Shown here: piece after piece, positions 24,392 through 59,960 of the stretch
How the letters are laid out: the number at the start of each line of letters is the position of its first letter
How positions within the stretch are numbered: the first letter of the stretch is position 1
Source of the DNA: an uncultured Alphaproteobacteria bacterium
GTDB taxonomy: Bacteria; Pseudomonadota; Alphaproteobacteria; HIMB59; GCA-002718135
Direction: 5' to 3'
DNA: 64,000 bases
Assembly (NCBI GenBank): GCA_902577425.1
Contig: CACGZD010000006.1
Location: 10,722 to 74,721, forward strand
Translations under genes and position numbers: made by a program
The notes under the pieces: generated by a model
Databases searched by the model: none
Told to the model about the DNA's origin: nothing
Seen by the model: only the letters and a program-made list of their open reading frames with translations

Positions 24392-24985
24392 ATGAAATTT
24401 TTATTTGATTTAGGTGGTGTATTTTTTGATTGGGATCCTAAATTTTTTTTTAAAAAAATAATTTCTGACAATGATGAAATGGATTTTTTTTTAACAAAAG
24501 TTTGCAATGATGAATGGAATTTAGCCCAAGACTCAGGGCGCAGCATTGAAGATGGAGAAAAAGATATTATTAGAAAATTTCCTCAATATGAAAATCTTAT
24601 CAGGCAATACTATCCAAATCATAGAAAAATGATTAAAGGAATTTTTCAGTCTTCAGTTAATATTTTAATAAAATTAAAACAAGATAATTATGAATGTTTC
24701 GTTCTATCTAACTGGTCTTCTGAAACATTTATAGATATACCTAAAGAATTCAAATTTATGGAAAATTTTGATGGTTTGTTGATTTCTGGAGAAGATAAGC
24801 TTGTTAAACCTGATCCTAAAATTTATTTATTAGCTATAGATAGATTTAATTTAGATCCACAAAATACTGTATTTATTGATGATAAGTTAGTAAATATTGA
24901 AGCTGCTAAAAAACTAGGATTTAAAACAATACATTTGACTAATCCTAATACAATTGAAGCTGAGATAAATAAGTTTATAAAATAA
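24392..24985 (+). CDS. HAD-family phosphatase/dehalogenase-like
   Basis: FDLGGV, LSN, KPDPKIY, FIDD. Confidence 0.88.
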   Translation: MKFLFDLGGVFFDWDPKFFFKKIISDNDEMDFFLTKVCNDEWNLAQDSGRSIEDGEKDIIRKFPQYENLIRQYYPNHRKMIKGIFQSSVNILIKLKQDNYECFVLSNWSSETFIDIPKEFKFMENFDGLLISGEDKLVKPDPKIYLLAIDRFNLDPQNTVFIDDKLVNIEAAKKLGFKTIHLTNPNTIEAEINKFIK

Positions 24986-25023
24986 AATAAAGTCATTAAA
25001 TATAATTTAAATTTAATTTTATT

Positions 25024-25097
25024 AAAAAAATCATTGAGCAGAGAAGTTTGCCAGAGGAATACTTCTAGGAGGAAATAATATGAAACTCTCTGCTCAT
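25024..25097 (-). ncRNA. Candidate small RNA with anti-SD/anti-AUG internal loop
   Basis: 14-bp outer stem (25035-25049 / 25083-25096), internal CAUAUUAUUUCCUCC, U7 tail. A LacI-type operator and a TATATT hexamer lie immediately upstream on the minus strand. Confidence 0.55.
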
Positions 25098-25110
25098 AAT
25101 AATAATATAA

Positions 25111-25124
25111 CCAAAACGTTTTGG
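25111..25124. promoter_or_regulatory. LacI-family operator (second copy)
   Basis: Perfect palindrome CCAAAACGTTTTGG, 13/14 identical to the site upstream of aglE. Confidence 0.75.
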
Positions 25125-25140
25125 AGTAATAAAATAGGAA

Positions 25141-25191
25141 CGAATCGGTAATATTTATAAATTATTAATGATTAATAAATATACCGATTCG
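25141..25191 (-). terminator. Long inverted repeat, probable terminator of the agl operon
   Basis: cgaatcggta(a)tatttat ... ataaata-taccgattcg, 17 bp downstream of the ATPase stop. Confidence 0.55.
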
Positions 25192-25208
25192 ATTAATTAT
25201 TGTTATTA

Positions 25209-26288
25209 TTATTTAAAAGCTTGGTTGTTACTATCAAATAATTGACAACGTGAAGCTGTGAATCCAACTTTTACAGTATCGCCAACCTTAATATTAGAAT
25301 CGCCTTCAGTTTCTACAACGAGAGGTTCGCCATCTTTTTCCAAATATAGAAATGTACCAGATCCAAGTTTTTCAACTACAAAAACTTTACTTTCCCAACT
25401 TGAATCACCATCTTGATTAACCAATAAGTGTTCAGGTCTAATGCCCAATGTAACTGAGTCACCATTTGATGAGTTTGAAGATGTTTTTGGTATTGTGATT
25501 TTGGATGTTCCAAAAATATCTATTTCTGTAGAGTTATTCGTAGAACTTAAGATTTTAGAATCAATAAAATTCATTTTTGGCGATCCAATAAAGCCTCCTA
25601 CAAAAAGATTTGATGGATTGCTATACAATTCCATAGGAGAGCCTTTTTGTGATACTATACCTTCATCTAAAACAACTATATCATCTGCTAATGTCATTGC
25701 CTCAGTTTGATCGTGTGTTACATAAATCATTGTTGCGTTAAGTTGATCATGTAATTTAGCTAACTCAACACGCATTTGAACTCGAAGAGCTGCATCCAGA
25801 TTTGATAAAGGCTCATCGAATAAGAAAACTTTTGGTTTTCTGGTTATAGCTCTACCAATGGCTACACGTTGTCTTTGACCTCCAGAAAGTTGCTTTGGTT
25901 TTCTTTGAAGATAATCTTCAATTTGTAAAATCCTTGCTGCTTCTTGCACTCTTTCATTTATTTCATCTTTTGATCTTTTTTCTAATTTTAACCCAAAAGC
26001 CATATTATCAAAAACTGTCATATGTGGGTACAAGGCATAAGACTGAAATACCATTGCAATATTTCTCTGTTTAGGAGGAAGATCATTAACGACTTCTCCA
26101 TCAATAGAAATTGTCCCAGAATTAATATCTTCTAATCCTGCAATCATTCTTAACATCGTTGATTTTCCACACCCACTTGGGCCAACCAAAACTGTAAAAG
26201 ATTGACTTTTTATATCAAGAGAAATGTCTTTAATAACATGAACATCTCCATAATATTTATTTATAGTATTTATATTTATATCTGCCAC
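25209..26288 (-). CDS. aglK: Sugar ABC transporter ATP-binding protein (MalK/AglK)
   Basis: GPSGCGKST, FQSYALYPHM, LSGGQRQR, DEPLSNLD, YVTHDQ. Likely GTG start at 26288 after AAGGAGGA (ORF track start 26315). Confidence 0.88.
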   Translation of the reverse strand: MADININTINKYYGDVHVIKDISLDIKSQSFTVLVGPSGCGKSTMLRMIAGLEDINSGTISIDGEVVNDLPPKQRNIAMVFQSYALYPHMTVFDNMAFGLKLEKRSKDEINERVQEAARILQIEDYLQRKPKQLSGGQRQRVAIGRAITRKPKVFLFDEPLSNLDAALRVQMRVELAKLHDQLNATMIYVTHDQTEAMTLADDIVVLDEGIVSQKGSPMELYSNPSNLFVGGFIGSPKMNFIDSKILSSTNNSTEIDIFGTSKITIPKTSSNSSNGDSVTLGIRPEHLLVNQDGDSSWESKVFVVEKLGSGTFLYLEKDGEPLVVETEGDSNIKVGDTVKVGFTASRCQLFDSNNQAFK

Positions 26289-26352
26289 TTCATCCTCCTT
26301 TGAGCGATCTTTCAAGCAGATTTAGTTTATTCCAATATTGATTTAGAAGCAA

Positions 26353-27666
26353 CTAAATTAAATAACCAAGGTGTTGATATTGTTTTTCTATCATATGATT
26401 TAAAAGCTTTTCTGCATTATTTACATTATTAACTACTGGATCAGCTAAAAGGGCTTTTAGAGCTTTGTCTTTAGATTTTTCCAGAATTGCTTCAGCTGTT
26501 AATCTCATTACGCTTACTTGACTTAGTAACAAAGTAGAAAAATCAAAAGGATAATTTTCTAATTTAATACCATGAATTCCTTCTTTATTAATTTTTCCAG
26601 GTACTTCCACTACAATATTTTCAGGCAAATATTCTATATATCCTTTATTAGGTAAATTTACTGCAGCTTCCTCATAATTTAAATCTTGAATTATTCCCTC
26701 AATAATTTTTACTACTCGTTCTTTTGGTTTTTTTTGAAGATCAAAATAATCTTGGTATGATTCTTCATTCTCATAAAATGTAAGACATTTTTCTCTATAT
26801 TTTGTATAAAACTCTAAAATAGCTTCATGATCAGCTACACTATACGCCCATTGAATATATTCTCCTAAATGACTATCTGTTGTAATTGGAAGATAATTGT
26901 ATCTATTAAATAATTCAAAAAAAACTCCTCTTTCTGCACCAGGCTTTTGTCCCCAAATTTCATGATCATTTACATAATTTTTGAAATATTCAGGTCCTTT
27001 TTTTCTAATGATTGAATATGCGTCTTTTGCTGTATCTTTAAATTTTGCTTCTGTAAGAATACTTAAATGATTTAATCCTCCAGCTCTATATTCAATATTT
27101 TCAAATGGAGTATTTAAAATATCTGGAAGTTGTCTTTCCATGGATGCTATCTCATGGCAAAGACCTATAAATTTCATTGAAGGATATTTTGTAGTTATTG
27201 TTTGACAAACTCGTTGCATAGGATTTGAATAATTGAAAACATACGCATTTGGACAAATTTTATTAATATCATCACAAATTTCAACTATTGGTGGTGTAAC
27301 TCTTAGAGAATGAAAAAGACCTCCAGGACCCCCATTCTCTCCAAAAACTTGTTTAAAGCCATATTGAAGAGGAACTTTCCAATCTTGATCCCATAAATCA
27401 AATCTTGGTTGTACTTCAATTGATATAATACAAAAATCAGCATTTTTGATAGCGTCTTTTCTTGAGGTGGTTGCTTCTATTCTAAAGTTTAAATTTAATT
27501 TTTCTTTATATTTCTTTGCTATTAATTCTGTATTTTTTAAAGATTCAGCATTGATATCATGCAGAACAATTGTAGATTTATCAAGTATCTTTGATTTAAA
27601 AATATCACCTATTGTTCCTAATCCAAAGTTTGTGCTCCCAGCTCCAATCAAAACAATTTTACTCAT
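26353..27666 (-). CDS. Family 4 glycoside hydrolase (NAD/Mn-dependent alpha-glucosidase/alpha-galactosidase)
   Basis: LIGAGS, GENGGPGG, NYSNP, GLCHE, GLNH, VVEVP. Confidence 0.9.
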   Translation of the reverse strand: MSKIVLIGAGSTNFGLGTIGDIFKSKILDKSTIVLHDINAESLKNTELIAKKYKEKLNLNFRIEATTSRKDAIKNADFCIISIEVQPRFDLWDQDWKVPLQYGFKQVFGENGGPGGLFHSLRVTPPIVEICDDINKICPNAYVFNYSNPMQRVCQTITTKYPSMKFIGLCHEIASMERQLPDILNTPFENIEYRAGGLNHLSILTEAKFKDTAKDAYSIIRKKGPEYFKNYVNDHEIWGQKPGAERGVFFELFNRYNYLPITTDSHLGEYIQWAYSVADHEAILEFYTKYREKCLTFYENEESYQDYFDLQKKPKERVVKIIEGIIQDLNYEEAAVNLPNKGYIEYLPENIVVEVPGKINKEGIHGIKLENYPFDFSTLLLSQVSVMRLTAEAILEKSKDKALKALLADPVVNNVNNAEKLLNHMIEKQYQHLGYLI

Positions 27667-27669
27667 AAT

Positions 27670-28809
27670 TTAACCCTTTACTGACCCTGCAACTAAACCT
27701 CTAATAAAATATCTTTGTAGTAAAAAAAATATCAAAAGAGGGACTGTCATAGATACAAATGCGCCTGTTGTCAAAATTTCCCAATTCTCTCCTCTTGATC
27801 CCAAAAGCTCTCTTAATTTTGCAGTAATAATTATTTCACTTGGTACTTGATCTAAAAATACTAAACCTACTAATAAATCATTCCAAACCCACAAAAATTG
27901 AAGAATAAATACAGAAGCAAAAGCTGGAATCGATAAAGGTAAAATAATTTTTTTAAATATATCGTAATGATTGGCTCCATCAACTCTTGCAGCCTCTATC
28001 ATTTCATGAGGTAAAGATTTAATAAAATTTCTTAAGAGAAAAGTAGTTGAAGCTAAGCCAAAACCAGTATGCGCCATCCATACACCGGGATAAGATTTGG
28101 AACTAATATTAAATAAATTACTAATATCATTATAAAGACTTAAAAGAGGAATTAAGGACATTTGTAAGGGCACTACAAGAGAGGCAATTACAGTAGCTAA
28201 CAACAAATCTTTACCAAAAAATCTCATCCAAGAAAGAGCATAAGCAAAAAATGAACAAATTATTAATGGTATCACTGTAGATGGAATTGCCACAGCTAAT
28301 GTATTAATAAATGCCTGACCAACACCTTCATTTAGCAGAACTTCTTTATAATTATTTAATGTAAATTTTGGAGGACTACTAGCTGTTATAAAAACTCTTT
28401 TACCTTTTTTATTCTCAAAGGGTATTTGAGATTTCCAAATATAGTCACCAGTTTCACTAATTTCTATTTTACTTCCATCTTTAAAAATTGCTTCTTCATT
28501 GATTAAAAATTCATTTATATTTTTAGAAGTTATTCCAAAACTTTTAATTTTTTTTCCAGTTTTTGTGTTAAATATATTTCCTTTAATAATATAATTATTA
28601 TTTTCTTTAAATTGAGATTCATATCCTGCTGTTCTATAAATTTCATTAATTTCAGTAGTAAATAATGATGTCCACCAACCACTTGTAGCAAGTAAATCTT
28701 TATCTCTAAATGAACTTATTAAAAGTCCAAAGGTTGGAATAATCCAAACTATTACAAAAATTAATAAAATTATTTGTGAAACAATTGAAGAAAAAAAACT
28801 TTTTTTCAT
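27670..28809 (-). CDS. aglG: Alpha-glucoside ABC permease (AglG-like)
   Basis: SGWW motif, large periplasmic loop, EAARVDGA, LQRYFIRGLVAGSVKG. Confidence 0.8.
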   Translation of the reverse strand: MKKSFFSSIVSQIILLIFVIVWIIPTFGLLISSFRDKDLLATSGWWTSLFTTEINEIYRTAGYESQFKENNNYIIKGNIFNTKTGKKIKSFGITSKNINEFLINEEAIFKDGSKIEISETGDYIWKSQIPFENKKGKRVFITASSPPKFTLNNYKEVLLNEGVGQAFINTLAVAIPSTVIPLIICSFFAYALSWMRFFGKDLLLATVIASLVVPLQMSLIPLLSLYNDISNLFNISSKSYPGVWMAHTGFGLASTTFLLRNFIKSLPHEMIEAARVDGANHYDIFKKIILPLSIPAFASVFILQFLWVWNDLLVGLVFLDQVPSEIIITAKLRELLGSRGENWEILTTGAFVSMTVPLLIFFLLQRYFIRGLVAGSVKG

Positions 28810-29792
28810 TATATTTTTTGTTCCTCTTTATGTCTGTATATGTTTAATATCATTATTGGAATAACAGCAATCATTATAATTATTGCAAATACACTTCCTC
28901 TTCCTGAATCACCGCCACCCCTAAACATCCAGTCGTACATAAGATTAGCTAAGACATCTGTTTGCCACATACCATTTGTAAGAGCTAAAATTATATCAAA
29001 GATTTTCAATACAAGTATTGTGATTATGGTCCATATAACTAATATTGTTTGTTGAAGATAAGGAATAATTATTGAAGTAAATATTTTTAATTCATTTGCT
29101 CCATCAATTCTAGCTGCCTCTAGCATATCTTTTGGAACACCTCTTAAGGCGGCACTAAAAATTACCATAGCTAAACCTGTTTGTATCCAAATCATCACTG
29201 CCATTAAAAAAAGATTGTTCCAAAGTGGAATAGTTAACCAAGCTTGAGGTTCGTATCCAAGAAATACTATAATTGCATTTAAAAAACCTATTTGTTGATC
29301 TCCAGGACCCCTGTAATCATAAACAAATTTCCAAATAACACCAGCACCTACAAATGATATTGCCATAGGCATAAAAATAAGAGACTTTGCAATTGTTCCC
29401 CACCAAAGTTTGTCTGCTAAATTAGCGATAACTAAACCAAAAAAAGTACTTAATGTTGGAACTATTAAAAGCCAGCCAAGATTATTTAAAATGGCTCTTT
29501 TGAATTCGGGGTTTTGTATAGCCCAAATATAATTGCTAATTCCTACAAAATCTCTACCATATTTATCATAAAAGCTCAGTCTTACAGTTTCAAAAACTGG
29601 ATATAAAATGAATATTAAGAGAACAATAAAACCTGGCGCTATAAAAATTATTACCCTTATTGACGAGTCATTTATTGATTTTTTAGAAGTTTTTTCAGTA
29701 AAAAAATCTAATAAAAAATTAGATAAATGAAAGTATGCAACGCATACCAACACTCCAATAAAGATATATACAAATAAAGAAAAAATAGTCAC
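28809..29792 (-). CDS. aglF: Alpha-glucoside ABC permease (AglF-like)
   Basis: FMPMAISFVGAGVIWKFVY, WIQTG, EAARIDGA. Confidence 0.8.
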   Translation of the reverse strand: MTIFSLFVYIFIGVLVCVAYFHLSNFLLDFFTEKTSKKSINDSSIRVIIFIAPGFIVLLIFILYPVFETVRLSFYDKYGRDFVGISNYIWAIQNPEFKRAILNNLGWLLIVPTLSTFFGLVIANLADKLWWGTIAKSLIFMPMAISFVGAGVIWKFVYDYRGPGDQQIGFLNAIIVFLGYEPQAWLTIPLWNNLFLMAVMIWIQTGLAMVIFSAALRGVPKDMLEAARIDGANELKIFTSIIIPYLQQTILVIWTIITILVLKIFDIILALTNGMWQTDVLANLMYDWMFRGGGDSGRGSVFAIIIMIAVIPIMILNIYRHKEEQKI

Positions 29793-29808
29793 AAGAAAAT
29801 ATTATATT

Positions 29809-29844
29809 AAAAAATTAGACGAGCAAGTTAATTGCTCGTCTAAT
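29809..29844 (-). terminator. Intra-operon stem-loop/terminator after the SBP gene
   Basis: attagacgagcaa-gttaa-ttgctcgtctaat 13-bp stem followed by a U-run on the minus strand. Confidence 0.75.
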
Positions 29845-29854
29845 ATAGGAGGTA

Positions 29855-31162
29855 TTATTTTATTGAATCCCAACTTGCTTGGATTGCATCAGCAACATCT
29901 TTTGCAGATTTTCCGTTAGTATAATCTACCATACCAGTCCAGAAACTTCCTGCTCCAATAGCGCCAGGCATTAAGTCTGATCCATCAAATCTAAATGTTG
30001 TTGCACCAGTTAAGATTTCTCCAAGTTTTCTAAAAGTATCACTTGAATAAGCACTTAAATCAGCATTTTTATTTGGAGTTAAGAAACCACCTTTTGCCAT
30101 CCACCATTCATTTGGTTCTGGATGCAGTAAAAATTTCAAAAATTCCATTGTAGCTTGATTTTCATTAGTTGCTGCAAATAATGTTCCACCACCAAGTACT
30201 GGCTTTCCTAAATCTTTAGTTGAATAAGCAGGAAAATAAAAGAAATCATAATCTACACCAGCTTCCACACCTTCAGGAAAGAAAGCAGGAATAAAACTTG
30301 CTTGACGATGCATCATGCATTCAGCAGGCGATGTAAATAATCCATTTGGAGCATCTCTAAAATCAGTTGTAGCAACAGCTTTTGAGCCTCCATTGACATA
30401 TTTGTCATTCAAAGCAAAAGAGCCAAAAAAATCCATAGCTTCTAAAACTCTTGGATCATTAAATGGCATTTCATTTGATACCCACATATCATAGACAGAA
30501 GGGTCATGCGTTCTTAGCATTATATCCTCCATCCAATCAGTAGCAGGCCAACCAGTTGCATCTCCTGAACCTAAACCAATACACCAAGGTGTATTCCCAT
30601 CACTAGCCATTTTTTCTGTTAATGCTATAAGATCTTCCATTGTAGTTGGAACTTCATATCCATTGTCTTCAAAATTATCTGGTGAATACCAAACTAAACT
30701 TTTAACATTAACTTTGTAAAAAATTGCATAAAATTGATCATTTCCATTTTCATCTGGATATGTAGCTAAATCAACCCATGATTGACCAGCTGCATAATTG
30801 TCCATAACTGCTTTTTTAACATCATCACTTAAAGGCCTTAAACCACCAATAGCAGCCATGTTAGCAGCTAAACCTGGTTGTGGAAATATTGCTATATCTG
30901 CTGGACTTCCAGCTTTAATATCAATCACAATTTGTTGTTCAAAACTATCGGAACCACCATATTCAACTGTTGCTCCTGTAGCCTTTTCAAAAATTGAAGC
31001 TATTTCTCTCATATAACCATCTTCTGGAGCTAACCAAGGACCAGAAATTGTAACTTTTTGACCACTTAGATCTGGACCACTATATGAGCCTGCAAAAGCA
31101 CTGGTATTTAAAACAAAAATAGAAGTAACAACTGCAAGAATTAGTTTAATTGTTTTTTTCAT
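29855..31162 (-). CDS. aglE: Alpha-glucoside ABC substrate-binding protein (AglE-like)
   Basis: Signal peptide; PQPG, KSLVWY, PWCIGLGSGDATGWPATDWMED, FRFDGSDLMP. ATG start at 31162 after GGAGG (ORF track start 31174). Confidence 0.85.
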   Translation of the reverse strand: MKKTIKLILAVVTSIFVLNTSAFAGSYSGPDLSGQKVTISGPWLAPEDGYMREIASIFEKATGATVEYGGSDSFEQQIVIDIKAGSPADIAIFPQPGLAANMAAIGGLRPLSDDVKKAVMDNYAAGQSWVDLATYPDENGNDQFYAIFYKVNVKSLVWYSPDNFEDNGYEVPTTMEDLIALTEKMASDGNTPWCIGLGSGDATGWPATDWMEDIMLRTHDPSVYDMWVSNEMPFNDPRVLEAMDFFGSFALNDKYVNGGSKAVATTDFRDAPNGLFTSPAECMMHRQASFIPAFFPEGVEAGVDYDFFYFPAYSTKDLGKPVLGGGTLFAATNENQATMEFLKFLLHPEPNEWWMAKGGFLTPNKNADLSAYSSDTFRKLGEILTGATTFRFDGSDLMPGAIGAGSFWTGMVDYTNGKSAKDVADAIQASWDSIK

Positions 31163-31199
31163 TCTTCCCTCCAATTATAAATGTAACCAGCATAATTTA

Positions 31200-31220
31200 C
31201 CAAAGCGTTTTGGTTGTCAA
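31200..31220 (-). promoter_or_regulatory. LacI-family operator adjacent to a TTGACA -35 box of the aglE promoter
   Basis: Minus strand reads TTGACA-A-CCAAAACGCTTTGG-TAAATT, in the divergent aglE/LacI intergenic region. Confidence 0.8.
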
Positions 31221-31280: not shown

Positions 31281-32303
31281 ATGAATATTAAAATTTTAGC
31301 AAAAAAATTGCGGCTTTCAATCACAACTGTTTCTAGAGCTTTAGGAGGTTATTCAGATGTTAGTGAAACTACAAGAAAAAAAGTAATTAAATATGCTAAA
31401 AAATATAAATATTCTCCTAATCCTAATGCAAGTAGTTTAGCTTCAGGTAAATCCAACACCCTTGGTTTTGTTATACCTTTATATGGACTTAATTCTAATA
31501 CTTTGAATCAAGCATCTTTTTTTGAATTTATTGCTGGAATGTCTACCAAGATTCATTCTGAAAATATTCAATTTTTTATGATGTTTGCAAATAATAAATT
31601 GGAAGAAAAAAATGCTTATGAAAAACTAATTAATGTACAAAAAGTAGACAAAATTATTTTGCATAATTTAAAAAAAAATGACTCTAGAATAGGAATGTTA
31701 AAAAAAAATAAAATTAAATTTGTAGCTTGGGGCAGAACTCAAGGATTGATTGACTACTCATGGGTAGATTTAGACAATGAAGGAAGTTCTAAATTAATAA
31801 TGCAATATTTAATTGAAAAAAATCATAAACATATAGCGTATATAAATATTGAAGAAAATTATAATTTTGCCTTTCAAAGAAAGCAAGGCTATCTTGACTC
31901 TCTTAAGAAAAATAAAATTAAATTTAATAAAAATTATTATATTTCTGTAAAACATGAAGATCCTGATCAAAGTTCTGCAGTCATTCAAAAAATGTTAAAC
32001 AAAAATTCAAAAATCACAGCTATAATTTGTTCCACTGAATATTCTGCTGTTGGCGCAATCAAGGCATGTAATCAATTAAATAAGAAAATTGGTAAGGATA
32101 TATCTATTATTACTTTTGATGGCCCAGTAGTTGGGACTTTAGCTAACCCATCTTTAACTGCAATTACACATGAAAGAAAAAATTTAGGCCACAAAGCTAT
32201 TGAAATTCTGACAGATATGGATAAAGATAATAGAGTTCATACTCATTTAGCTAAGGCGAAAATCATTGAAAGAGGATCTGTTTGTAAATTAAAGAAAAAT
32301 TAA
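31281..32303 (+). CDS. aglR: LacI-family transcriptional regulator (AglR-like)
   Basis: HTH LSITTVSRAL...YSPNPNA, sugar-binding domain, divergent from aglE. Confidence 0.85.
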   Translation: MNIKILAKKLRLSITTVSRALGGYSDVSETTRKKVIKYAKKYKYSPNPNASSLASGKSNTLGFVIPLYGLNSNTLNQASFFEFIAGMSTKIHSENIQFFMMFANNKLEEKNAYEKLINVQKVDKIILHNLKKNDSRIGMLKKNKIKFVAWGRTQGLIDYSWVDLDNEGSSKLIMQYLIEKNHKHIAYINIEENYNFAFQRKQGYLDSLKKNKIKFNKNYYISVKHEDPDQSSAVIQKMLNKNSKITAIICSTEYSAVGAIKACNQLNKKIGKDISIITFDGPVVGTLANPSLTAITHERKNLGHKAIEILTDMDKDNRVHTHLAKAKIIERGSVCKLKKN

Positions 32304-46502: not shown

Positions 46503-46577
46503 TGGTGCCACAGGGCAGAATCGAACTGCCGGCTTATTCATTACCAATGAATTACTCTACCCCTGAGTTACTGCGGC
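46503..46577 (-). tRNA. tRNA-Thr (GGT)
   Basis: Cloverleaf with acceptor GCCGCAG/CTGTGGC, anticodon arm ATTCA-TTGGTAA-TGAAT, T arm GGCAG-TTCGATT-CTGCC, encoded CCA. Confidence 0.95.
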
Positions 46578-59884: not shown

Positions 59885-59960
59885 GCCCAGATAGCTCAGT
59901 TGGTAGAGCAAAGGACTGAAAATCCTTGTGTCCGTGGTTCAATTCCACGTCTGGGCACCA
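59885..59960 (+). tRNA. tRNA-Phe (GAA)
   Basis: Acceptor GCCCAGA/TCTGGGC, D arm AGCTCAGTTGGTAGAGC, anticodon arm AAGGA-CTGAAAA-TCCTT, T loop TTCAATT, CCA. Confidence 0.97.

Follow-up and report, generated by a model that had tools for sequence, protein, structure and literature searches.

A candidate anti-ribosome-binding-site small RNA family adjoining an alpha-glycoside-type ABC operon in HIMB59-related marine Alphaproteobacteria

We analyzed a 64,000-nt stretch of DNA (the window; assembly GCA_902577425.1, contig CACGZD010000006.1, positions 10,722 to 74,721 of the forward strand) from an uncultured alphaproteobacterium of the HIMB59 lineage and focused on a short element located just downstream of its alpha-glycoside-type ATP-binding cassette (ABC) transporter operon. 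Based on its sequence, we assign a probability of roughly 0.6 to the reading that this element represents a new family of trans-acting small RNAs (sRNAs) that act against ribosome-binding sites (RBSs), are coupled to the sugar operon, and have the mRNA of a Dpp/Opp-type binding protein as their main predicted target. The putative RNA gene would span about 75 nt in the window and about 115-120 nt in most relatives, and it would be transcribed on the strand of the malK-like gene, immediately after this last gene of the operon. Comparison of relatives shows an anatomy in which two helices, P1 and P2, frame a single-stranded seed, UUCAUAUUAUUUCCUCCUA, and a U tract closes the RNA. The seed is predicted to pair with the Shine-Dalgarno (SD) sequence, spacer, and AUG of an mRNA encoding a binding protein of the family SBP_bac_5 (SBP_5), forming 18 contiguous base pairs and about 7 more across a bulge. 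Such a duplex would occlude the 30S binding site and thereby reduce synthesis of the SBP_5 transporter.

The 19-nt loop UUCAUAUUAUUUCCUCCUA was invariant in 87 of 88 aligned elements. The complement of the seed, the 17-mer GGAGGAAATAATATGAA, was searched for in 81 genomes of the family; two copies turned up in 44 of them and a single copy in 28, leaving 9 without any, while the reversed 17-mer used as a control gave no hit in any of the 81. In the genomes with two copies, one copy was the element, and the other coincided with the SD, spacer, and ATG of an SBP_bac_5 gene in all 14 second sites examined. A conserved seed and a conserved complementary site, which together are one mark of a trans-encoded sRNA, were both found. 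A preliminary description of the element, made from the letters alone, had suggested that an anti-RBS loop is directed at ABC binding-protein starts in the manner of the AbcR sRNAs, and these 14 sites, together with the duplex ranks given below, showed that the loop is complementary to real starts of this kind. The SBP_bac_5 orthologues, assigned by Pfam, are 522 amino acids long with 81-82% amino acid identity; annotation gave no NCBIfam equivalog at cut-off, and the best relative in the PDB was 5u4o (E = 1.3e-38). In the genome to which the window belongs (G000), the gene is located outside the window (G000:C2:127801-129369), its start is exactly complementary to the seed, and it heads a Dpp/Opp-type ABC operon with two permeases and a fused ATPase. 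The pairing between seed and SBP_5 continues upstream of the SD across a bulge of 1-2 nt.

A genome-wide duplex scan was performed with the 22-nt seed against the 2376 open reading frame (ORF) starts of G000; a 45-nt query was abandoned because it produced artefactual long-loop duplexes. The translation initiation region (TIR) of SBP_5 ranked first of the 2376 ORFs, at -26.4 kcal/mol compared with a mean of -8.6 (standard deviation 4.1), and the start of an AapJ-like SBP_bac_3 gene ranked second at -23.4 kcal/mol. Pfam was run on nine of the top 16 TIRs (ranks 1, 2, 4, 6, 7, 8, 11, 12, and 16), and ranks 3, 5, 9, 10, and 13-15 were omitted because their start sites looked unreal. Seven of these nine, SBP_5 included, belonged to ABC binding proteins, and the other two belonged to an APH-family protein and to ATP synthase subunit c; the top partners were SBP_bac_5, SBP_bac_3, OpuAC, SBP_bac_1, and Peripla_BP_4 genes. 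Weaker pairing with other binding-protein mRNAs that carry a strong SD may also occur, with the AapJ-like SBP_bac_3 second after SBP_5. As a conserved second target, the AapJ-like gene was rejected, since its exact 18-mer was kept in only 13 of 81 genomes, and cis pairing with the RBSs of the agl operon itself was rejected as well (best duplex -12.8 kcal/mol, at the ORF-list start of the binding-protein gene, and none in the top 25).

The match to SBP_5 was also distinct by copy number. Among 96 GGAGG-type TIR candidates, the 17-mer was repeated elsewhere in the genome for three; two of these duplicate each other as TIRs, and the SBP_5 TIR was the only one of the 96 with a second copy at a non-start site, which is the element. 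When each seed was paired with the SBP_5 TIR of its own genome, the duplexes reached -23 to -32 kcal/mol in five element-bearing lineages, and the G000 seed gave -15 and -18 kcal/mol with the TIRs of two genera that lack the element. In G006, a member of another genus, the loop and the SBP_5 TIR both read AGGAGGAAATTAT at the place of the usual AAATAAT, and the duplex was weaker (-18.6 kcal/mol). This was the one event of co-variation between loop and TIR; a case beyond G006 did not emerge because SBP_5 was not found in G107, G001, G002, G004, G009, or G133. Apart from the seed match, the 5' untranslated region (UTR) of the SBP_5 gene shows conservation over some 45 nt ahead of the SD (GAAGTAGTATGGGTCTACCATCAAATTTCTAT...; L086 9371-9470, with equivalents in L061-L084), and this leader holds the short self-complementary words ATGG/CCAT and may have a structure of its own.

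The strand on which the element functions was evaluated using an alignment of 88 elements (A2; 62 distinct sequences). The 10-bp helix P1 was 99.7% paired over the 62 distinct sequences, compared with 50-64% for slid controls. Two P1 pairs were doubly changed; pair 10/73 occurred as G-C in 45 sequences and A-U in 17, and pair 17/66 as G.U in 45, A-U in 16, and U-A in 1. The inner helix P2 was 97.8% paired, with U-A (45) and U.G (11) variation, and G148 carries a further compensatory variant, GGUAG/CUACC, with a C-G to U-A change. Variation is high in the few bases that precede the stem and is also seen in the stem itself; the loop is nearly fixed. Most sequences have G.U pairs at three stem positions, and this distinguishes the strands: 618 of 620 stem cells pair on the aglK (minus) strand, compared with 470 of 620 on the plus strand, where 148 G.U pairs become C.A. 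A comparison of orthologous regions downstream of aglK had been proposed in the preliminary description, and it bore out both the stem covariation and the minus-strand reading.

A function of the plus strand would be an alternative, either as a very short leader ORF (MKLSAHNNNITKTFWSNKIGTNR) preceded by a strong RBS or as a decoy SBP_5 TIR in the 3' UTR of the upstream gene. A perfect GGAGG-7 nt-ATG is indeed present on the plus strand, and a metatranscriptomic contig (X1 record 1, see below) joins the 3' end of the HAD gene to the element. However, single-nucleotide indels right after the ATG break the frame, the ATG itself is lost in G006, G148, and G107, the 148 stem cells noted above would be C.A mismatches, and the upstream plus-strand gene differs between lineages. 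The mini-ORF was therefore rejected as a peptide, and a plus-strand function of either kind is very improbable. The G.U strand bias, the covariation, and the failure of the mini-ORF together indicate that RNA from the aglK strand is the functional reading.

The features reported in the preliminary description were all present, including the stem-loop at 25036-25095, the A7/U7 tract, and the perfect palindrome (Table 1), and its minus-strand fold with an outer stem and a U7 tail was reproduced. The outer stem comprises 9 bp and, beyond a bulge, another 3-4 bp and is followed by the U7 tail, with a minimum free energy of -20.5 kcal/mol (z = -3.1; an equally good fold in 1 of 200 shuffles). The anti-RBS segment CAUAUUAUUUCCUCC is, as had been stated, the exact complement of plus-strand positions 25068-25082 (GGAGGAAATAATATG), and its mean unpaired probability was 0.62. 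The inner hairpin had been drawn as CUAGA/UCUGG, which is possible in the window, but relatives form the equivalent helix P2 in a slightly different register.

According to the stem, the elements were divided into type A (GAGCAG; 20 distinct sequences) and type B (GGGCAG; 60). Nearly all distinct relatives of both types (19 of 20 in type A, 57 of 60 in type B) have a downstream run of at least five T. With the stem abutting U7 and the T run kept in relatives, the 3' end has the form of a Rho-independent terminator; a simple terminator scanner was silent at the element because the loop is longer than its limit. Type B and G030-like relatives (L010 of G028, L006 of G030) contain an inverted partial copy of the 3' half of the element just downstream, about 10-60 nt 3' of it on the RNA strand, which has no counterpart in the window. 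With this copy, a hairpin of about 28 bp can form, with a U run behind it and the inner segment of the element as one arm, whereas in the window P1 itself abuts U7. In the modelled folds, the 28-bp hairpin competes with P1 and would leave the seed 5'-single-stranded, so that the RNA may have two states in such relatives.

Window positions 25035-25110 were 80-90% identical across genera of the same family in a DNA search of relatives. Of the 151 genomes of the order searched with a covariance model (R1) built from an alignment of 17 loci (A1), 68, G000 among them, have the element, each in exactly one copy; within the family the model matched 67 of 79 genomes, and in the sister family none of 71. 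An exact-pattern scan of a species-representative collection returned 79 stretches, all from single-cell or metagenome genomes of marine alphaproteobacteria, several of which are labelled HIMB59, and the clade that carries the element is therefore HIMB59/AEGEAN-169. The element adjoins the 3' end of a malK-like gene at every locus inspected, and the neighbor on the far side is the HAD gene in the window, a DAO-family oxidoreductase gene in most of the large genus, and a same-strand G3P-dehydrogenase gene in G021. Because this neighbor varies between lineages, the element travels with the ATPase gene and not with the neighbor, and its retention across genera points to more than chance.

G008 and G010, which belong to genera lacking the element, carry the sugar operon as well as SBP_5; in these two genomes, the ATPase gene is not the last of the operon, no LacI gene is near it, and the SBP_5 TIRs differ. 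Orthologues of the operon's binding protein and of SBP_5 were not found in G005 and G007, and an orthologue of the operon's binding protein was not found in G022 (genus g8). Two loci differ in arrangement from that of the window. In G021 (L053, G021:C34:41000-53000), the element follows the MalK-like ATPase gene of an operon whose binding protein is of the Peripla_BP_4 type, not SBP_bac_1; the promoter of this operon carries the same CCAAAACGTTTTGG operator, and the G3P-dehydrogenase gene is next on the same strand. In G010 (L192, G010:C17:57500-67500, 239-403), the ATPase gene precedes the binding-protein gene and the gap between them holds a degenerate operator-like word, ACAAAACATTTTAG, with no LacI gene found nearby.

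In the window, the element is located in a convergent gap (24986-25208) between the plus-strand HAD-family gene and the minus-strand gene for the MalK-like ABC ATPase. Reading the minus strand 5' to 3', the gap contains a long hairpin, the palindrome, an AT-rich segment with TATATT, the stem-loop, and U7. The palindrome CCAAAACGTTTTGG is identical at 13 of 14 positions to CCAAAGCGTTTTGG in the divergent binding-protein/LacI promoter, as the preliminary description had noted, and this is its only other match in the window at two mismatches or fewer. Two such matches compare with 0.23 expected, and two were reached in 1 of 100 shuffles. Across the 1.52-Mb genome, the 25111 site is the only perfect operator copy, and three sites have at most one mismatch, the third without the central CG. 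The same 14-mer is located at the operon promoter in G011, G030, G021, and G009. A palindrome with a central CG that matches the operator at the regulator's own promoter is one mark of a LacI regulon member, and it was found here.

At the binding-protein (aglE) promoter, the primary operator occupies the space between TTGACA and the -10 box. The operator near the element, placed in the 17-nt spacer of a weak promoter-like site, mirrors this layout and makes LacI control plausible in type A. The promoter-like site of the window has 8 of 12 consensus matches, which is below the scan threshold, and it was hence not flagged. In the alignment, read by eye, all lineages inspected have a TAnnnT hexamer 6-10 nt ahead of the stem, and in G011 a terminator-like hairpin after the ATPase gene is followed by a promoter-like site, TTAATA-18-TAAAAT, ending about 6 nt before the stem. 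Searching upstream of the element for an operator-like site with at most two mismatches gave one in 17 of the 20 sequences of type A, at either of two fixed distances from the stem, 15 nt or 42 nt, and in only 2 of the 60 of type B. LacI control is therefore not general to the family. The earlier proposal that the RNA is de-repressed together with the agl operon holds insofar as an operator occupies a promoter-like spacer in type A, but it does not extend to type B, which makes up most of the clade. Production of the RNA would be coupled to the sugar operon by one of two routes: through a weak promoter with a LacI-type operator in its 17-nt spacer, as in the window and type A, or, in most of type B, where the operator is lacking, through read-through or a constitutive promoter.

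The palindrome at 25111-25124 might instead be an auxiliary operator of the agl operon, acting by looping or as a roadblock, and not belong to an sRNA promoter. Its rank as the genome's best operator copy fits this view, as do the distances of 15 nt and 42 nt, which are ill-suited to one fixed promoter geometry, and the fact that most relatives keep the RNA without the palindrome. However, about 6 kb separate it from the primary operator, and it is situated past the last stop codon and the hairpin of the operon, where a roadblock would protect the element alone, and it occupies the 17-nt spacer exactly as the primary operator does. We consider an auxiliary operator unlikely, while granting it some weight. 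Elsewhere in G000, at about position 514123 of contig C1, an operator-like CCAAAGCGTTTTAG is located between ATGACA and ATAAAT with the same -35/operator/-10 layout; judging from the letters, this may be another promoter repressed by a LacI-family protein.

A hairpin after the aglK stop codon was present in all lineages, with a terminator-like score in G011 and unscored in the window. Its arms, GAATCGGTA/TACCGATTC, are kept in several genera, and its long AT-rich upper stem varies. As for transcripts, seven runs from four studies of marine metatranscriptomes hold part of 24700-25500, and the four examined gave contigs only. One contig (X1 record 1; 351 nt, depth 3.9) contains the 3' end of the HAD gene and 25033-25096 and is a variant with a 38-nt deletion, as in G001/G002. 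Another (X4 record 13; 317 nt, depth 7.4) spans 25101-25402.

The element could be only the 3' UTR end or intrinsic terminator of the sugar operon, perhaps bidirectional so as to serve the convergent gene too, with no role in trans and with the SBP_5 match as a relic of an old inverted duplication. Its position directly downstream of aglK on the same strand and its stem plus U7 would agree with this, and read-through into the element is plausible because the aglK hairpin of the window is unscored as a terminator; X4 record 13 joins the 3' end of aglK to the first 13 nt of the stem. A terminator, however, needs no more than a stem and a U tract, whereas here it is the 19-nt loop that stays invariant while the stem varies, and in G011 a separate terminator-like hairpin already follows aglK. 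A relic would not be expected to remain identical across genera of streamlined genomes, and the changed loop of G006 matches its own TIR. A mere terminator or relic is decidedly unlikely.

Several points weigh against the reading of the element as an anti-RBS sRNA for SBP_5. The loop is invariant even where the SBP_5 TIR has drifted (G030, G150, and G021), although the duplexes of each seed with its own TIR were still -23 to -24.5 kcal/mol in these three despite the changed SBP_5 spacer. All three operator-bearing members of the large genus that were examined have a contiguous match reduced to 11 nt, plus flanks. G009 (91% complete) has the element, and neither an SBP_5 orthologue nor any other TIR containing the 12-mer was found in it; SBP_5 was also not found in G133, G107, G001, G002, and G004, which are 67-84% complete. 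SBP_5 may thus not be the only partner of the loop, or the one that constrains it. The enrichment of binding proteins among the top TIRs may merely reflect that these have the strongest SDs. The pairing statistics come from an alignment (A2) that was fitted to the model and in which many rows are close kin. The operator is absent in 58 of 60 type B sequences, promoter calls are at the level of consensus matches in a genome of 28% GC, and the window site was unflagged by the scan. The sole RNA data are low-depth contigs without strand, ends, or level, for which DNA carry-over is possible.

The drifted TIRs and G009 also bear on a further alternative, in which the RNA is real and the constraint on its loop comes from a protein partner, from the ribosome, or from a wide range of mRNAs with strong SDs, with SBP_5 as one incidental match. 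The unchanged loop in genomes with a different SBP_5 spacer, and in G009 where SBP_5 was not found, speaks for such a constraint, and AGGAGGAAA is common to many binding-protein TIRs. Yet the exact identity over 17-18 nt and the pairing upstream of the SD are specific to one orthologous gene at all 14 sites, and the second-best candidate has kept its exact 18-mer only in the 13 genomes given above. We regard an incidental match as quite unlikely. The drifted TIRs together with G009 lead us to describe SBP_5 as the best and most conserved predicted target of the RNA, and perhaps not as the sole constraint on its loop.

Hfq (PF17209) was not found in the genome of the window (0/1) or in any of 27 family genomes that are at least 85% complete (0/27), and positive controls worked. 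A duplex as long as that predicted with SBP_5 would function without Hfq. In a covariance-model search of the whole window against Rfam at gathering thresholds, two tRNAs were the only matches and none was at the element, and a search of 24900-25300 at E up to 10 gave merely chance-level MIR6149 and PVX_3. These results agree with the preliminary remark that the element is of no known family, and comparison of its sequences indicates that it likely represents a new, Hfq-independent sRNA family.

The closest known systems are the AbcR1/AbcR2 sRNAs of Agrobacterium, Sinorhizobium, and Brucella, alphaproteobacterial RNAs for which Hfq dependence is a family property. The element resembles them in its accessible anti-SD seed, in its predicted ABC binding-protein TIR targets, and in its alphaproteobacterial host. 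In contrast to AbcR1/AbcR2, it has no Rfam match, and hence no membership in AbcR or alpha-r15-type covariance models, is single-copy and not in tandem, and occurs in a clade where Hfq was not detected; its seed is a long, near-perfect antisense to one TIR and not a short CUCCCA-type motif, and it is linked to a sugar operon. The element is thus an analogue of the AbcR family and not a member of it.

Other sRNAs share single traits with the element. GcvB and the 3'UTR-derived DapZ of enterobacteria also repress Dpp/Opp-type binding proteins by pairing at or near the RBS, but they use G/U-rich seeds against C/A-rich enhancers and need Hfq, whereas the CCUCC anti-SD of the element covers SD and AUG; they have no homology to the element. 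MalH, from the 3' end of the maltose ABC operon in E. coli/Vibrio, is likewise a regulatory RNA at the end of an operon and hence co-induced with sugar uptake. Unlike the element, MalH arises by processing of the operon mRNA and has porins as targets, while the predicted target here is the binding protein of another transporter, and a terminator-like hairpin and, in some lineages, an operator with promoter-like boxes separate the element from the last gene. ChiX/MicM and Spot 42 are anti-SD sRNAs that silence a nutrient-uptake gene within a carbon-source hierarchy, as is proposed here, but they belong to a different phylum, depend on Hfq, have unrelated sequences, and are controlled by CRP or a decoy mRNA, not by a repressor of the LacI family. 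The proposed mechanism itself is of a known kind, and it is the family that is probably new.

HIMB59/AEGEAN-169 bacteria are abundant in oligotrophic oceans. Their genomes are small and encode few regulators, and the element would bear on the question of nutrient prioritization in such cells. If the reading of the element as an anti-RBS sRNA is correct, it would exemplify Hfq-independent anti-RBS control in which the uptake of sugar is tied to a second uptake system. The hypothesis is directly testable, since both the seed and the conserved target are defined, the operon is linked to the element, and some lineages also have a defined repressor site. In the literature searched, supplements aside and including PMC6429828, PMC11109978, PMC10308909, PMC5069720, and PMC7368042, we found no trans-acting sRNA described for HIMB59/AEGEAN-169. 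The AEGEAN-169 paper (PMC10308909) presents the alpha-glucoside transporter as a feature of the clade, and the words sRNA, riboswitch, and noncoding are not present in its main text.

The preliminary description also proposed a catabolite hierarchy in which the RNA shuts down competing transporters. One conserved target, the family-5 binding protein, does stand out, but the hierarchy as such goes beyond what the alignments and duplexes give. In its fullest form, this idea would be that an Hfq-less, streamlined marine clade relies on one RNA to order its nutrient use post-transcriptionally, and that this RNA originated by inverted duplication of the RBS region of its target. This RNA would be induced with the alpha-glycoside operon, either through a LacI-type repressor or by read-through, and would silence the Dpp/Opp-type transporter, and it might dampen highly expressed binding-protein mRNAs through the shared AGGAGGAAA core. 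In most relatives, it could toggle between two folds, one with P1 closed and one with the long terminator hairpin and a free seed. We offer this scenario as speculation and, taken as a whole, hold it to be unlikely.

The coordinates of the element, its parts, and the surrounding genes are listed in Table 1.

Table 1. Features of the candidate sRNA locus and its surroundings (positions in the window)
Feature	Position	Strand	Remark
U7 tract closing the candidate RNA (A7 on the plus strand)	25024-25030	-	extended stem abuts the tract in the minimum free energy fold
3' arm of outer helix P1, RNA AAACUUCUCUGCUC	25036-25049	-	from fold and alignment
Inner hairpin P2 with second CCUC motif, RNA CUAGAAGUAUUCCUCUGG	25051-25068	-	from alignment
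Predicted seed GUUUCAUAUUAUUUCCUCC, complement of SD, spacer, AUG, and 4 nt	25068-25086	-	nearly invariant, single-stranded
5' arm of outer helix P1, RNA GAGCAGAGAGUUU	25083-25095	-	G.U pairs of relatives fit the minus strand only
-10-like hexamer TATATT	25104-25109	-	8 nt upstream of the stem
LacI-type operator CCAAAACGTTTTGG	25111-25124		fills the 17-nt spacer that separates the -35-like TTATTA (25127-25132) from the -10-like box
Long hairpin immediately past the aglK stop	25141-25195	-	probable, possibly leaky, terminator of the agl operon; from fold and conserved arms
HAD-family hydrolase gene	24392-24985	+	left border of the gap
MalK-like ABC ATPase gene (aglK)	25209-26315	-	last gene of the sugar operon
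Sugar ABC operon: SBP_bac_1, two permeases, GH4 glycosidase, MalK-like ATPase	25209-31174	-	
Primary LacI-type operator CCAAAGCGTTTTGG	31200-31213		binding-protein/LacI divergent promoter
LacI-family regulator gene, candidate AglR	31281-32303	+	divergent from the sugar operon

Among the products of the sugar operon, the GH4 enzyme was nearest to an alpha-galactosidase subfamily and the ATPase nearest to MalK/UgpC in NCBIfam, and none reached an equivalog cut-off. The two tRNA genes that were the sole Rfam matches in the window at gathering thresholds are located at 46506-46577 on the minus strand and at 59885-59957 on the plus strand.

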